A DNA stretch of 64,000 bases from Candidatus Altimarinota bacterium (GTDB lineage: Bacteria > Patescibacteriota > Gracilibacteria > JBDHUY01): NCBI GenBank assembly GCA_039809385.1, contig JBDHUY010000002.1:32001-96000 (forward strand), given 5' to 3'. Both the position numbers and the translations under genes were made by a program. Positions 55,228-58,434 of this stretch are shown here, piece after piece. Numbering within the stretch: the first letter of the stretch is position 1; each line of letters opens with the position of its first letter. Below the pieces are notes generated by a model. The model did no database searches. It was not told the origin of the DNA and was given only the letters and a program-made list of their open reading frames with translations.

Positions 55228-58200
55228 ATGTCCGACCAACCAGCCAATAACGATCATCCCACGACCGAGCAGAAACTTTCCCAGCTCAACGATGCCGTAC
55301 TGGTAAGCCAGTTCAAGGATTTTATGAATCGTAAAAAGTATGAAGAATTGATCAAGAGTTATGAGACCCTGATCCTGGATCATCCGGACCATAAACCGTC
55401 CAAACAGATTTCGGGATTATACGAAAAAGCCAAAGGAAAACTGGAAGAAGCTTTGATGAAAAGCTGGTTCGAGAGTGCCAGTAAGAATATCGGAAAATAT
55501 AAAAACGACCCCGGCGCGGTGCAGTCGATCGACGAAGCAATCTACTGGGTCAAAGCTTTTTTCAAACGCAAGCAATATCGTAAAGCTATTAGAGGCGCCA
55601 AAGAGATCCTCAGTATCGACCCCGGTCACCGTGAAATAAAAGATTTGCTGGAACAGGCTCTCTATCTCTATGACAAACAGGAGCATACCTTCAAAGGCGA
55701 ATTCGATTACGAAAAACAGAAACAGATCGAAGAACAAGAACATGCTTGGAGCACACTCGAGAAACTGAAGTTCGAGATGACCAACGCGCTCGATCTGGAA
55801 AAATATAAACGGGCCGAAAAACTGGCTGACAAAGTTCTGGCGCTGGAACCTTCCGACGAAGATGCGCTCAATGTGAAACACCAGCTGGAACGGGTCAAGA
55901 ATGCAAAAAGCGGCAGCAAAAAACAGGTAGATCTCTCTGGCATGAGCAAGCTCAAAAGAAGCCTCGATATTTACCGTTTGAAACTTGAAAAAGCCAAAGC
56001 CAGCATTATCAAGACCATTTTTTCCCGATTGCGGGAAAGTGAAAGCGAAAAACTGAAACGTAAAGCACTGGAGCTGGTCAAAGAAAAGAAAGAGGATAAC
56101 GTACTGGCCCAAAAGTTGCAGAAAAATATCATTCCACAGATCGATAAATATACGCTGCCGGGATTTGACGTGTGGGGCGATACGTTGCAGTCGGAACGCA
56201 TCGGCGGCGACAGTTTCGGATTTATCCAGAGAGATGCCGAAAATATTCTCTTTTATATCGGCGATGCTTCCGGTCACGGGATCCAGGCTTCGCTGTTTTC
56301 GTCGCGAGTTAACTTGATTTTACGGGAATGTGCCCGCGAAGGTTTGGGATTGCGCGACACCGCCGTACGGCTTAATCAGCGAGTCTTTGAAGAGAAAGTC
56401 AAAGAAAAAGACAAAGATTTCATGACGATGATTCTGTTCAACTGGAATCTGAAAACCAAGACCCTCTCTTTCGTCGGAGCCGGTCACGAGTATATCATTC
56501 ATTATAAGCACAGCGAACAAAAGATCGATCTGATTCCGGCCAAAGGGATTGCCATCGGTATGATCGAAAAAGCCGAGCCGTTATTAACAGAAAAACAGAT
56601 CAAGATCGGCGATCAAGATATCATCGGTCTCTTTACCGACGGGGTCATCGAAGCCGTGATGAAGCAAAATGAAAAAGAGCTTTTCGGTATCAACCGACTC
56701 AATGACCTGCTCGTAAAAAATCTGGGGGCCAAAAACAGCAGAGAGCTCTACAGCAGCATCGTGCGCAGTGTCGGCGAACAAACCGTGCAAAGAGACGACG
56801 TTACGCTCCTGGTTTTACGTCGTGACGAGCATACCGATTTGATTTTCGAAGATGATCTGAAGGGAATCGAATCGATCGACCTCAATACGCTCAAAAATCT
56901 TTCACGCGGAGAAGTCGAAAAGTCGATTCAGGAAATTTCGCGCGAAAACAAAGTCAAACACCTGCTGTTAGAACTGAATAACCTGCTGCAGCGCGGAGAA
57001 TTCCAGATGATCGTTAACCGGTGTACCGAAGCGATCGTGAAAGACGAAGTTTATAACAAAGAGATTAACAATTTTTTACGCAAAGCCAAAAAATATCAGG
57101 TACAACAACGCGAAAAAGAGCGTCGCGATCAGATCGAGGCGATTTATCGTCTGGCCCGCGACGAATTCAAAGCCGGTGAGTCCATGAAAGCGAAAATGAG
57201 CCTGCTAAAAATCATGAAGCTCGACGAAAAAAATCTGAAGATCAAAACATTATTCAAACGGGTCGAAAAGGCGGTAATAAAATACGGTCCCCGGCATTTG
57301 CATAAGAAAAAGCAGAATGTCTGGCTCGATAACCTCGTTCGAAAAATAAATCTGGCGCTCAGTCCGGCCAACAAAAAAGACAATGTCGATTTCATCGTAC
57401 GTCTTTCAAATCTGGTCAATTCCGGAATCAAAGTGAAAGAATCCTTATTGATCCTTATCAAACAGGCCAAAAAAGATAGTCTGAAGATCATGTATGCCAA
57501 AATGATCGAAAATCTGGAGAAAGGGTTCCTGCTTTCCTTTTCTATGGCGCTGTATCCCCGGGTATTCACTTCACTGCAAACCAATCTGGTGCGTGCCGGC
57601 GAGGAAAGCGGTAACTTGGGACCGATCCTGGATGACCTTAGCCATCAATTGATCGAAGAACGCGATCTGAAAAGAAAAATCAAGGGGGCGCTTATTTATC
57701 CCGGCTTCATTATCTCGTTCAGTATTGCGCTGGTCGTGGGGATGATGCTCGGAGTAGTTCCCCAGCTTGCTCAAGCCTACAATGATGCCAAACTTACGTT
57801 ACCTGTTCCGACCCAGGTGATCATTGCGATAAGCAATTTTATTCGAGATTTTTGGTATGTTCTCGTCATCCTGGGCGTGGGCGGAGTTATCGGCATGATC
57901 TCTTTCGGCCGAACCTTACCCGGGAAACTGTTTTTCGATCAGGTTAAGATTAAAATACCGATTTTTAAAGATTTGACCCGTAAATCCAACGTGTTTCTGT
58001 TCGGCAACAGTCTGTCGATGCTGGTAGACAGCGGTATTCTGCTCCTGGATGCCATGAGCATTACGTCGGATGTGGTGCAGAATATTTACTATAAACGAGA
58101 AATCGTACGGGTCAGAAACGATGTAGTCAACGGAAAGGCCTTGTCTTCCGCACTTGGAATCGATGCTTTGAGCGACAAGACCAAAAAAGAGAACGAGTAT

Positions 58201-58434
58201 TTTCCGCTGGAAGTCCCGCAGATGGTACAAGTAGGCGAGAGCACCGGTCAGATTACAAAAATGCTCCGTCAAGTAGCCGAAAACTATCAGAGAGAATTGA
58301 AGGATTTTGCCAAAAACTTTTCGACCATTATCGAGCCTGTGCTAATTGTCTTTATCGGTGTCATGGTCGGAGTATTGCTTGTTTCGATCATGTTACCCTT
58401 CTTTGAATTCGGCAAAGTCATCAAGAATCAATAA
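55228..58434 (+). CDS. pilC: TPR + PP2C/SpoIIE phosphatase + PilC (T2SSF) fusion protein
   Basis: IGGD, IGDASGHG, AGH, FTDGVIEA, RDDVT (about 56104-56823); LSNLVNSGI, GEESGNL, ALIYP, GESTGQ, IEP (about 57385-58434); ATG at 55228. Confidence 0.9.
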   Translation: MSDQPANNDHPTTEQKLSQLNDAVLVSQFKDFMNRKKYEELIKSYETLILDHPDHKPSKQISGLYEKAKGKLEEALMKSWFESASKNIGKYKNDPGAVQSIDEAIYWVKAFFKRKQYRKAIRGAKEILSIDPGHREIKDLLEQALYLYDKQEHTFKGEFDYEKQKQIEEQEHAWSTLEKLKFEMTNALDLEKYKRAEKLADKVLALEPSDEDALNVKHQLERVKNAKSGSKKQVDLSGMSKLKRSLDIYRLKLEKAKASIIKTIFSRLRESESEKLKRKALELVKEKKEDNVLAQKLQKNIIPQIDKYTLPGFDVWGDTLQSERIGGDSFGFIQRDAENILFYIGDASGHGIQASLFSSRVNLILRECAREGLGLRDTAVRLNQRVFEEKVKEKDKDFMTMILFNWNLKTKTLSFVGAGHEYIIHYKHSEQKIDLIPAKGIAIGMIEKAEPLLTEKQIKIGDQDIIGLFTDGVIEAVMKQNEKELFGINRLNDLLVKNLGAKNSRELYSSIVRSVGEQTVQRDDVTLLVLRRDEHTDLIFEDDLKGIESIDLNTLKNLSRGEVEKSIQEISRENKVKHLLLELNNLLQRGEFQMIVNRCTEAIVKDEVYNKEINNFLRKAKKYQVQQREKERRDQIEAIYRLARDEFKAGESMKAKMSLLKIMKLDEKNLKIKTLFKRVEKAVIKYGPRHLHKKKQNVWLDNLVRKINLALSPANKKDNVDFIVRLSNLVNSGIKVKESLLILIKQAKKDSLKIMYAKMIENLEKGFLLSFSMALYPRVFTSLQTNLVRAGEESGNLGPILDDLSHQLIEERDLKRKIKGALIYPGFIISFSIALVVGMMLGVVPQLAQAYNDAKLTLPVPTQVIIAISNFIRDFWYVLVILGVGGVIGMISFGRTLPGKLFFDQVKIKIPIFKDLTRKSNVFLFGNSLSMLVDSGILLLDAMSITSDVVQNIYYKREIVRVRNDVVNGKALSSALGIDALSDKTKKENEYFPLEVPQMVQVGESTGQITKMLRQVAENYQRELKDFAKNFSTIIEPVLIVFIGVMVGVLLVSIMLPFFEFGKVIKNQ

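Follow-up and report, generated by a model that had tools for sequence, protein, structure and literature searches.

A SpoIIE/RsbU-type PP2C phosphatase and a complete PilC/GspF platform protein are encoded as one polypeptide by a type IV pilus operon in the window, the whole 64,000-nucleotide stretch of Candidatus Altimarinota DNA analyzed here. The fusion is genuine, and it is conserved and under selection. Part of the Gracilibacteria/Peregrinibacteria class has long carried the phosphatase module as an accessory of this pilus operon (pilB, PP2C, pilC, pilT), as a gene of its own in TGA-recoded lineages and joined to PilC in the present genome. As the module is either part of the PilC polypeptide or encoded directly between pilB and pilC, the simplest reading is that it brings Ser/Thr dephosphorylation physically to the pilus motor.

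Architecture of the fusion protein

The ORF listing bears out the single uninterrupted frame described in the first-pass annotation, with one unbroken frame at 55177..58434 (+) that encodes 1085 residues counted from TTG. The ATG at 55228 is the likely start, since its product is identical to database protein P0006. Residue numbers refer to P0001 (the TTG version, 1085 aa) or P0006 (the ATG version, 1068 aa) as indicated. From the N- to the C-terminus, the protein comprises a helical region, the PP2C phosphatase, another helical region, and the complete platform (Table 1).

Table 1. Features of the pilus operon and of the fusion gene (window coordinates).
Feature	Coordinates	Strand	Description
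pilB / fusion / 402-aa gene / pilT operon		+	Fusion gene is the second member
pilB-like extension ATPase (P0002)	53833..55104	+	423 aa; Pfam T2SSE E 1.5e-124
Fusion gene	55228..58434	+	1068 aa from ATG; ORF open from TTG at 55177
N-terminal all-helical region	55228..56127	+	About aa 1-300 of P0006; TPR-like at best
SpoIIE/RsbU-type PP2C (PPM) phosphatase domain	56140..56832	+	aa 305-535 of P0006
Post-PP2C helical domain	56905..57285	+	aa 560-686 of P0006
Low-confidence linker, phosphatase module to PilC	57286..57363	+	aa 687-712
PilC/GspF platform part	57364..58434	+	Two T2SSF repeats, three strongly hydrophobic segments
402-aa protein (P0003), no known family	58488..59696	+	Ser/Thr/Pro-rich N-terminal half
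pilT retraction ATPase (P0004)	59863..61221	+	452 aa; TIGR01420 426.8 bits (cut-off 319.1), residues 104-445
pilin-like gene	62548..63144	+	N-terminal methylation motif; Pfam N_methyl E 4.5e-8

The helical parts had been described as TPR-like, of which the helices are borne out and the TPR assignment is tentative. The AlphaFold2 model, which ends in the linker (overall pLDDT 82.5), predicts helices at 13-301 (pLDDT mostly 70-96 over 11-220, 41-72 over 221-300) and 560-686 (mostly 84-93) of P0006 and shows helical hairpins. Pfam TPR_14 (21.0 bits, cut-off 23.5) and TPR_2 (17.0 bits, cut-off 27) are both sub-threshold at residues 205-233. The post-PP2C domain is common to the split PP2C proteins of relatives and aligns with their C-terminal end. 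The linker is assigned from a pLDDT of about 52-53 in the last modelled blocks and from the alignment.

The phosphatase domain matches Pfam SpoIIE (PF07228) at residues 355-549 of P0001 (E 1.9e-34, 119.7 bits, cut-off 25), spanning profile positions 3-191 of 192. All four motifs claimed to be intact are found in the translation: GGD at 343-345, DASGHG at 363-368, TDG at 487-489, and DD at 540-541 (P0001 numbering). The conserved Asp residues of these motifs are metal-binding in the family. Seven residues (D328, D346, H350, D471, G472, D523, and D524 in P0006 numbering) are invariant in 17 fused members and equally in an alignment of 38 fused and split members, which are 18-72% identical to the window protein. 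Because the metal-binding motifs are invariant across these members at about 20% identity, the enzyme is probably active. The earlier concern that the domain might be inactive finds no support in the alignment, where every metal-binding motif is kept in the 38 members.

The domain is modelled with a block-mean pLDDT of 85-95. When the predicted model was submitted to Foldseek, RssB-type proteins topped the list, and RssB, the RsbU domain of Rv1364c, SiaA, RsbX, and SpoIIE were recovered at E 1e-13 to 1e-10, with a probability of 1.00 and target-normalised TM-scores of up to 0.81 (SiaA 6k4e, RssB 3f79). The solved folds closest to this model are those of STAS- or SiaC-directed PP2Cs.

The platform is two-lobed and complete, as first stated. 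Pfam T2SSF (PF00482) matches in two stretches (E 2e-46, 157.5 bits) and NCBIfam GspF over profile positions 60-400 of 401, covering both lobes. Hydrophobic segments are confined to this part (818-851, 864-897, and 1029-1065, with a weaker one at 922-940). The platform belongs to the family without being the equivalog of any curated NCBIfam subtype, with all cut-offs missed (GspF 256.8 vs 424; Thermus-type PilC 225.9 vs 700; HofC 210.4 vs 401). Residues 733-1080 align with 77-414 of the canonical PilC of Myxococcus xanthus (3jc8, E 2.6e-42). Compared to canonical PilC/GspF, the fusion shares the two T2SSF repeats but carries about 700 additional N-terminal residues.

Neighbouring pilus genes

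The surroundings are those of a type IV pilus operon: a PilB-like T2SSE protein and PilT flank the fusion gene, and an N_methyl pilin gene is nearby. Two peculiarities of these neighbours had been noted as hints of PP2C wiring, and both are accurate observations that fail as hints. The PilB-like protein matches the NCBIfam PilB profile only from position 176 of 564 and hence lacks the canonical PilB/GspE N-terminal domain. At loci without PP2C, PilB is mostly as short; beside the best PilC match at 18 such loci from other families, it measures 407-457 aa in 13 and 467-549 aa in 5. PilT has a Glu/Ser-rich N-terminal tail (16 Glu and 15 Ser within the first 100 residues) that is peculiar to the source genome, as PilT is 365 aa long in a genome of the same family (G001) and, where complete, 360-371 aa in split lineages.

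The 402-aa protein matches no family in Pfam or NCBIfam and has one hydrophobic segment, at about 207-236, after its Ser/Thr/Pro-rich half. It is not conserved in G001, which has an unrelated 331-aa gene. An Atlas search lead for this protein (best score 0.81, low recognition) was discarded, as it gave no usable identity.

Integrity and distribution of the fusion

The fusion gene is not a chimera. The source genome is a metagenome-assembled genome of 26 contigs, and its sequence here agrees with low-depth contigs of public runs, so that depth and junction support are what these contigs bridge. Contigs of run X1, which may be the source sample of the window, tile the whole fusion stretch. Confirmation had been advised across about 56820-57390, and a contig from run X2 of the same study spans the junction (56825-58017) with 0 differences to the window. 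Runs X1-X8 bear activated-sludge or wastewater labels. Metatranscriptome run X11 yields two 151-nt contigs at 55526-55834, which are insufficient to show transcription.

Relatives carry the same architecture, and the worry that the fusion might be missing from all of them, or be chimeric, is answered by both lines of evidence. The first-pass annotation had recommended an architecture search for SpoIIE with T2SSF, and the fused architecture occurs in 8 protein clusters at 90% identity and 12 at 50% identity (P0008, P0010, P0012, P0047-P0054, P0081). The fused architecture is present in 4 genomes of two families, and independent assemblies share the fused frame with 24-77% identity. Relatives that have recoded TGA encode the module on its own, in a gene of about 630 aa immediately between pilB and pilC (24 loci), and these split proteins align with the fusion through the PP2C and the following helical domain. 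The best 30 loci of a 401-genome census of the class include 4 fused loci, 24 with PP2C directly upstream of pilC, one cut by a contig end, and one without PP2C; three further split cases are G034 and two named Gracilibacteria records.

The gene order pilB, PP2C, pilC recurs in four families. In the phylogenetic tree, the state changes between fused and split at least three times, and the fused member P0054 sits within the TGA-recoded split clade. Pilus-linked PP2Cs are grouped against other PP2Cs with weak support (SH-aLRT 75). PilC proteins of split lineages have a conserved N-terminal peptide of the type F-[FY]-D-x-x-G-N-F-D.

A search of 185,579 species genomes with the PP2C module, restricted to the best 80 loci and thus not a census, found 2 in a pilus context and mostly ordinary HAMP-type PP2Cs. 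The genes around PilC at 20 loci of 19 other families were also searched with profiles of the N-terminal, PP2C, and post-PP2C parts. No PP2C or post-PP2C match was found there, and the sole match was a weak one of the N-terminal profile to the 716-aa PilC of G121 (E 5.5e-9), which is possibly compositional. In families f11 and f25, the unknown genes that separate pilB from pilC matched none of the module-part profiles. P0055 is a PilC with a helical or TPR extension and without PP2C.

Partner-switching components

A search for STAS proteins and kinases had been suggested as a check, and it was successful for STAS proteins and RsbW-like kinases but not for Hanks-type kinases. STAS proteins are present in all six carrier genomes checked (the source genome and five others) and RsbW-like kinases (HATPase_c_2) in the source genome and four of the five others. 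No HATPase_c_2 match was found in the remaining carrier, G224, which is 98% complete and does have a STAS gene. The Pkinase search for Hanks-type kinases gave no match in the source genome and four of the other carriers; G022, with one match, is the only such carrier. An Asn-Ser site (N62, S63) is invariant in nine STAS sequences of carriers, and its serine is presumably the phosphosite, judging from its position by comparison with SpoIIAA and RsbV.

In the source genome, the HATPase_c_2 domain at G000:C3:41714-42091 is the only RsbW-like gene found by tblastn. Of its three STAS domains, one is fused to this kinase and two are in further STAS proteins; a second PP2C is of the HAMP type. The small recoded genomes encode a single STAS, two PP2Cs, and no more than one RsbW-like kinase. 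At none of the loci examined does a STAS or kinase gene lie in the pilus operon or beside the pilus-linked PP2C. The RsbW-like gene is flanked by pilin genes in G034, and a pilin-like gene lies about 1.2 kb from it in G022. STAS occurs class-wide (35 of 41 relatives), so that finding it does not point to the pilus-linked PP2C in particular; the six relatives lacking a STAS match also lack any PP2C-part match. In G013 and G054, the other PP2C shares an operon with the RsbW-STAS gene and may therefore be the main STAS phosphatase.

Two instances of proximity were set aside. The RsbW-STAS/STAS pair of the source genome, on another contig than the fusion, is separated from a second pilus cluster by about 8 kb containing housekeeping genes (DNA glycosylase, ProRS, oxidoreductase); the STAS gene of G224 is about 1.7 kb from pilT on the opposite strand, which was treated as coincidence as it is seen in one genome. 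The six sigma-70 family genes of the source genome are all on other contigs, and none comes within 50 kb of either PP2C, the STAS-403 gene, or the RsbW-STAS/STAS pair. When the PP2C (aa 285-545) was modelled in complex with the STAS domain of the source genome's 403-aa STAS protein, in a run without controls, the score was 0.01 against a mark of 0.32, a value that weighs in neither direction on binding.

Comparison with known systems

SpoIIE, the prototype of PF07228, has a PP2C of the same Pfam family in one polypeptide with a membrane part, is tied to an envelope machine, and is among the sequence and fold matches of the fusion PP2C (3t91, 5ucg, 5mqh). The membrane part of SpoIIE is N-terminal and its machine is the division septum, whereas the PP2C of the fusion is N-terminal to the platform and has no sigma factor gene or other output linked to it. 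Similarly to the RsbV/RsbW switch of Bacillus, which has the two phosphatases RsbU and RsbP, the source genome combines an RsbW-like kinase, a PP2C, and a STAS protein whose Ser is conserved, with two phosphatases per genome. It differs in its scattered genes, a kinase fused to STAS, the lack of an adjacent sigma factor, and the placement of one phosphatase within a pilus platform. In type VI secretion, the PP2C of the PpkA/PppA/Fha1 system controls the assembly of an envelope nanomachine post-translationally; the PppA structure 6jkv ranks 25th in the Foldseek list. That system uses a Hanks kinase and an FHA protein, in contrast to the source genome, where no Hanks kinase was found.

The substrate of Bacillus subtilis SpoIIE is a phospho-STAS protein (PMC11418112). 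In Nostoc punctiforme, the HmpU/HmpV/HmpW partner-switching set is required for type IV pilus-driven hormogonium motility, and its STAS protein is the output, acting on an undefined effector (PMC6495340, PMC8256260). Unlike the fusion, the Hmp components are presented in passages of these papers as their own hmpU-W locus, with no PilC platform link mentioned there. The BtrU/BtrV/BtrW set of Bordetella regulates a type III secretion machine, not a sigma factor alone (PMC8256260); it serves a different machine, and the passages on it mention no fusion.

Interpretation

We favor, at slightly better than even probability, the reading that the fusion tethers a phospho-STAS phosphatase to the pilus platform. 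The cytoplasmic N-terminus of PilC would carry an active SpoIIE/RsbU-type PP2C, flanked by helical domains, on a flexible linker. Its substrate would be a phosphorylated STAS-domain protein of the genome's partner-switching set, namely one RsbW-like Ser kinase fused to STAS, two further STAS proteins, and the HAMP-type PP2C. The platform would be one of two phosphatase inputs into the switch, comparable to the joint action of RsbU and RsbP on RsbV, or to SpoIIE, which couples SpoIIAA dephosphorylation to a membrane machine. Such a circuit could report pilus state to the cell, control extension and retraction locally, or both.

The first-pass annotation had placed Ser/Thr control at the motor itself; the physical placement remains the simplest reading, and PilB and PilT are no longer the likely substrates. 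A different substrate is likely given the lack of Hanks kinase matches in five of the six carriers, the STAS-directed fold, and the presence of STAS proteins with an RsbW-like kinase. Direct action on pilus proteins (PilB, PilT, PilC, pilins, or the 402-aa protein) that switches extension and retraction is nevertheless what one might expect of an enzyme tethered beside them, with its gene between pilB and pilC at 24 split loci, Ser/Thr-rich sequence in the 402-aa protein and PilT tail, and one Pkinase match in G022. We consider it unlikely, as no Hanks kinase was found in the source genome and the four remaining carriers, neither the tail nor the 402-aa protein is conserved, and the nearest folds are STAS- or SiaC-directed enzymes.

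Less probable still is that the module is mainly a scaffold, with helical domains positioning PilB and PilT on PilC in place of the missing PilB N-terminal domain and catalysis unimportant. The PP2C fold can be a binding or metal-sensing domain, as in Escherichia coli RssB, and the fold list is led by RssB-type proteins. The domain sits between large helical regions, and PilC extensions without PP2C occur in P0055 and in G121, the latter weakly similar to the N-terminal region. Against this, the Asp residues and the His of DxxGHG are invariant in 38 members at about 20% identity, which is unexpected for a pseudo-enzyme, and short PilB also occurs without PP2C. An assembly or gene-calling artefact, or chance operon sharing, would be compatible with a fragmented metagenome-assembled genome supported by low-depth contigs, but is scarcely credible given the independent fused assemblies, the gene order in four families, and the identical X2 contig.

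A more specific version of the preferred phospho-STAS reading, which we regard as a long shot, treats the platform as a mechanosensing input to a sigma-independent partner-switching circuit. A pilus engaging or retracting against a host cell would alter the state of PilC and activate the tethered PP2C, which would dephosphorylate the STAS protein locally. The freed STAS protein, or the released partner of the kinase, might then redirect the motor or start an episymbiont attachment programme. The conserved N-terminal peptide of PilC in split lineages would be a docking site that the fusion replaces, and the whole would resemble a SpoIIE-like checkpoint for host contact instead of septation.

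Significance

The platform and the phosphatase are one protein in this uncultivated bacterium and neighbouring genes in relatives, an arrangement suggesting a link between pilus motor and phosphorylation switch by a route so far undescribed. In line with the earlier claim that this wiring is uncharacterised, a literature search found no published description of PP2C-PilC coupling; supplements of CPR genome papers might list the architecture. What is known of how type IV pili switch between extending and retracting comes mainly from Proteobacteria and concerns second messengers and accessory ATPase regulators. A phosphatase that toggles between fused and split states beside the platform protein in four families is strong comparative evidence for physical coupling. 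With a single STAS, two PP2Cs, and no more than one RsbW-like kinase, the recoded genomes checked provide a minimal partner-switching circuit for which no sigma factor output is evident. These bacteria depend on their pili and, with very small genomes, are thought to live in attachment to other cells; a phosphorylation switch located at the base of the pilus would therefore provide a testable handle on how they sense or control contact.

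Architecture of the fusion gene and its operon

The fusion gene is a single open frame of 1085 aa when counted from a TTG codon (P0001). The product from the ATG at window 55228 (1068 aa) is identical to the database protein P0006, and the coordinates proposed for the gene in the first-pass annotation (55228-58434) are therefore right. P0006 residue numbers are converted to P0001 numbers by adding 17. Pfam recognizes two T2SSF repeats (E 2e-46), preceded by a SpoIIE-type PP2C domain at P0001 residues 355-549 (E 1.9e-34), and the four PP2C motifs reported earlier are all found in the sequence. 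Residues 721-1083 cover nearly all of the GspF, PilC, and HofC profiles of NCBIfam, scoring under every equivalog cut-off. The regions previously described as TPR-like are helical in an AlphaFold2 model; two TPR profiles at P0001 residues 205-233 score under their Pfam cut-offs.

Hydrophobic segments are confined to the PilC part of the protein. As the N-terminal side of PilC is usually cytoplasmic, the 700-residue N-terminal module is cytoplasmic too. In the fusion, the phosphatase is thus tied covalently to the cytoplasmic side of the platform.

The host genome (1.87 Mb in 26 contigs, 95% complete) also encodes another PilC, of the plain kind and accompanied by PilN, PilO, and pilin genes; a second PilT; and two further PilB-like ATPases. 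Features of the locus are collected in the table. Counterparts of the 402-aa and 206-aa operon genes were undetected in the loci of relatives; in G001, a relative with the fusion, the 331-aa product encoded between pilC and pilT does not resemble the 402-aa protein at the threshold applied. The 33-base motif may be a promoter or leader element shared with its other copy, in which case the fusion gene would have its own start signal downstream of pilB. The 2844-aa NHL-repeat protein is possibly a surface protein of the pilus locus. Enzymes of the O-antigen ligase (Wzy_C) type, one of which is encoded upstream, glycosylate pilins in some bacteria.

Features of the pilus locus and of related genes in the window genome (G000) and two other genomes with the fusion (G013, G054)
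Feature	Location	Product	Remarks
Membrane protein gene	window 41060-42946 (+)	628 aa	upstream of pilus genes; O-antigen ligase (Wzy_C) domain
Giant ORF	window 45154-53688 (+)	2844 aa	immediately 5' of pilB; NHL repeats at about 1980-2055, nothing more recognizable
PilB-like ATPase gene		423 aa	beside fusion gene; without N-terminal region (NCBIfam)
Fusion gene	window 55177..58434 (+)	1085 aa	PP2C and PilC
33-base motif	window 55186-55218		just 5' of fusion ATG
Other copy of motif	G000:C14:52454-52486		sole other copy in G000; 3 differences; between rpoA and rplQ
Uncharacterized gene	window 58488-59696	402 aa	other neighbor of fusion gene; no family (Pfam, NCBIfam), one membrane segment (hydropathy)
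pilT			after 402-aa gene; Glu/Ser-rich tail of about 100 residues
Uncharacterized gene	window 61343-61963	206 aa	no family match (Pfam, NCBIfam)
Pilin gene	window 62548-63144		after pilT
RsbW-STAS gene	G000:C3:41681-42490	269 aa	RsbW-like kinase with STAS domain fused
STAS gene	G000:C3:42508-42939		follows RsbW-STAS gene
Tailed STAS gene	G000:C10 (L015:1468-2679)	403 aa	STAS domain at N-terminus
Tailed STAS gene	G013:C13 (L170:1465-2466)	333 aa
RsbW-STAS gene	G013:C1:71100-71852
RsbW-STAS gene	G054:C9:19802-20524

The fusion is genuine and recurrent

A word-indexed search found both Pfam domains together in eight clusters at 90% identity (1003-1068 aa, 40-100% identical). When 1.84 billion representatives were searched with a profile, eleven more candidates ranked ahead of plain PilCs. 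Pfam confirmed that P0047-P0054, as well as the fragment P0081, have SpoIIE and T2SSF domains; P0055 combines TPR and T2SSF without PP2C. Counting P0008, P0010, and P0012, the fused architecture occurs in 12 clusters at 50% identity, which answers the call for an architecture search. Contigs from public sequencing runs agree with the window at zero differences, and one from run X2 bridges 56825-58017 across the junction of the parts. Recovery of the same frame in independent assemblies is the stronger argument, given that run X1 is possibly the source sample and X2 comes from the same study.

Conservation and predicted fold of the phosphatase

Across 38 members sharing 18-72% identity with the window protein, 13 residues are invariant: D328, D346, H350, N383, F398, H420, A442, D464, D471, G472, E475, D523, and D524 (P0006 numbering). 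Every motif considered to bind metal in the SpoIIE/PP2C family is among these columns. The earlier description of the PP2C as intact is upheld by this conservation, and the enzyme is apparently catalytically active. Glycine columns miss invariance only because of P0054, a record with tryptophan at Gly codons (52 W versus 13 G; WDATWHW for GDATGHG). As W is written where Gly is encoded, P0054 is TGA-recoded, and this accounts for its Pfam score of only 65.9 bits. Mistranslated records of this kind distort conservation counts.

Residues 1-703 were modeled with AlphaFold2 from the 38-member alignment (mean pLDDT 82.5). The model is helical at 13-301 and again at 560-686; between these regions lies an alpha/beta domain at 313-535 (block-mean pLDDT 85-95), and the terminal stretch is of low confidence (pLDDT about 52-53). 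The low pTM (0.46) leaves the mutual arrangement of the three regions unpredicted. The top folds in a Foldseek search of the PDB (E 4e-13 to 5e-11) were P. aeruginosa RssB, the RsbU domain of Rv1364c, SiaA, RsbX, and SpoIIE. Hanks-kinase-associated PP2Cs, PstP and Stp1 among them, ranked lower.

Fused and split forms across the class

In some TGA-recoded relatives, the PP2C module is a separate gene between pilB and pilC. Read with table 25, G022 encodes PilB (412 aa), the PP2C protein (664 aa), PilC (406 aa), and PilT (360 aa), and the first three genes are separated by gaps of only a few bases. The same order is repeated in G034 and in two named Gracilibacteria records. A profile of 17 fused proteins was used to search 401 genomes of the class, 22 of which gave one match through both the PP2C and PilC parts. 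Counts from the best 30 loci, which were inspected, are lower bounds: the fused state holds for at least four (f1: G000, G001; f13: G013, G054), and in at least 24 others, which all belong to families f22 and f30, a PP2C gene immediately precedes pilC. One of the remaining two is broken by a contig end and the other lacks PP2C (G028, family f11). In a further 19 families, represented by 20 loci centered on the best PilC match, pilC has no PP2C nearby; long PilC frames in f17 and f20 bear other N-terminal extensions.

Split and fused proteins align through the PP2C and the following helical domain, and the split proteins end at the start of the PilC linker. On these comparisons, the phosphatase module predates its fusion to PilC. 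In a quick maximum-likelihood tree that adds 11 other PP2Cs to the 38 pilus-linked modules, the fused state requires three changes. The split clade is sister to that of the window protein (SH-aLRT 98), and the fused P0054 falls within the recoded split clade; the node that sets every pilus-linked module apart from the outgroup has weak support (SH-aLRT 75). Repeated switching between a single gene and a pair of neighboring genes is a classical sign that the products work together physically. The comparative evidence for coupling of the PP2C to the pilus platform is strong.

Two hints offered earlier in favor of this coupling do not hold. The short PilB was linked to the PP2C, yet the neighboring PilB is 407-457 aa in 13 of 18 loci from families without PP2C (467-549 aa beside the best PilC in the other five). 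G001 lacks the Ser/Glu-rich tail, its PilT having 365 aa, and complete PilTs of the split lineages have 360-371 aa.

All 24 PilCs with a PP2C gene directly upstream (L116-L137, L139, L140) start with a conserved peptide that conforms to K-K-F-[FY]-D-K-x-G-N-F-[DN]-N-x-K-F-[IL]-x-L-L; no such peptide was seen at the PilC N-termini of 20 loci (L142-L161) from families without PP2C. This peptide is a candidate docking site through which split PP2Cs would be held at the platform, its place being taken in fused forms by the covalent link. Other N-terminal additions are frequent on PilCs of the class: an array of about 20 PENIAPEV-type repeats in G017 (L007), extensions of 300-350 aa in G121 (L148) and G107 (L152), and TPR repeats in P0055. 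In f11 (L142/L143) and f25 (L161), pilB and pilC are separated by an uncharacterized gene of 259-352 aa. Accessories in general seem to be attached to PilC at its N-terminus.

Candidate substrates of the phosphatase

SpoIIE-family (PF07228) members dephosphorylate STAS-domain proteins, according to the abstract of PMC11418112. G000 has no Pkinase match. Its genes for partner switching comprise one RsbW-like kinase with a fused STAS domain, a following STAS gene, the 403-aa STAS protein, and a second PP2C of the HAMP type (527 aa); none of its six sigma-70 family genes is near a kinase, STAS, or PP2C gene. Among five other genomes carrying the module (G022, G034, G224, G013, G054), STAS was found in all, HATPase_c_2 in all except G224, and Pkinase in one. 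Each has two PP2C genes, except G054 with three. The three recoded genomes each have a lone STAS gene and no more than one RsbW-like gene. Common to the STAS sequences of the carriers are an invariant Asn-Ser pair and, four residues further on, a Gly. In G034, genes with the pilin N-terminal motif flank the RsbW-like gene; a pilin-like gene in G022 lies about 1.2 kb from it, its N_methyl score being under the cut-off.

From these parts, we infer that the substrate of the pilus-linked PP2C is a phosphorylated STAS protein. Of 41 relatives, the six without a STAS match likewise lack a PP2C-part match, which serves as a consistency check only, since related genomes are not independent. Several observations count against this reading. 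STAS or kinase genes never occur inside the pilus operon in the loci examined, and STAS is class-wide (35 of 41 genomes) and hence does not single out the pilus-linked enzyme. In G013 and G054, moreover, the other PP2C shares an operon with the RsbW-STAS gene; this arrangement fits a two-input design and also allows another target for the pilus-linked enzyme.

The RsbW-like kinase and STAS are joined in one protein of 265-285 aa in G000, G013, and G054, and in the latter two a PP2C gene of about 400 aa follows. For partner switching, it is an unusual layout to have the kinase fused to a domain of its own substrate type. Long Pro/Ala/Val-rich tails are present on STAS proteins of G000 and G013; within these two genomes, their STAS domains come closest to the lone STAS of the recoded genomes. 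The tailed type comes after a stand-alone RsbW-like gene in G013 and G054.

Precedents and proposed role

As described in excerpts of PMC6495340 and PMC8256260, partner switching acts on a motility machine in Nostoc (HmpU/V/W) and, in the latter source, on a secretion machine in Bordetella (BtrU/V/W), rather than on a sigma factor. For neither set do those excerpts describe fusion to the machine or docking on it.

In the main text of openly accessible papers, we found no description of a PilC-PP2C fusion or of the pilB/PP2C/pilC order, and none of T2SSF with SpoIIE. Nor did anything relevant turn up there on type IV pili or SpoIIE in Peregrinibacteria, or on type IV pili and phosphatase in Absconditabacteria/Gracilibacteria, and there was nothing on this architecture for partner switching joined to type IV pili, phosphatase, and STAS. 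The text of the CPR genome papers searched mentions neither PilC, PP2C, RsbU, nor a relevant phosphatase. The parts, a PilC platform and a partner-switching PP2C, are already known, and what appears to be new is their combination; it is not a new kind of system.

The first-pass annotation tied the pilus motor to Ser/Thr dephosphorylation. In the mechanism proposed here, the PP2C would strip from a STAS protein the phosphate added by the RsbW-like kinase, a proposal that is testable with purified proteins; the organisms are uncultivated. In the partner-switching design of Bacillus, each phosphatase is one input. Analogy with this design and with SpoIIE would favor the pilus machine as the signal source. 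The platform would be one of two inputs to the circuit, the other being the membrane HAMP-type PP2C. That pilin genes lie next to the kinase in G034 is a hint that the circuit may also have the pilus as its output.
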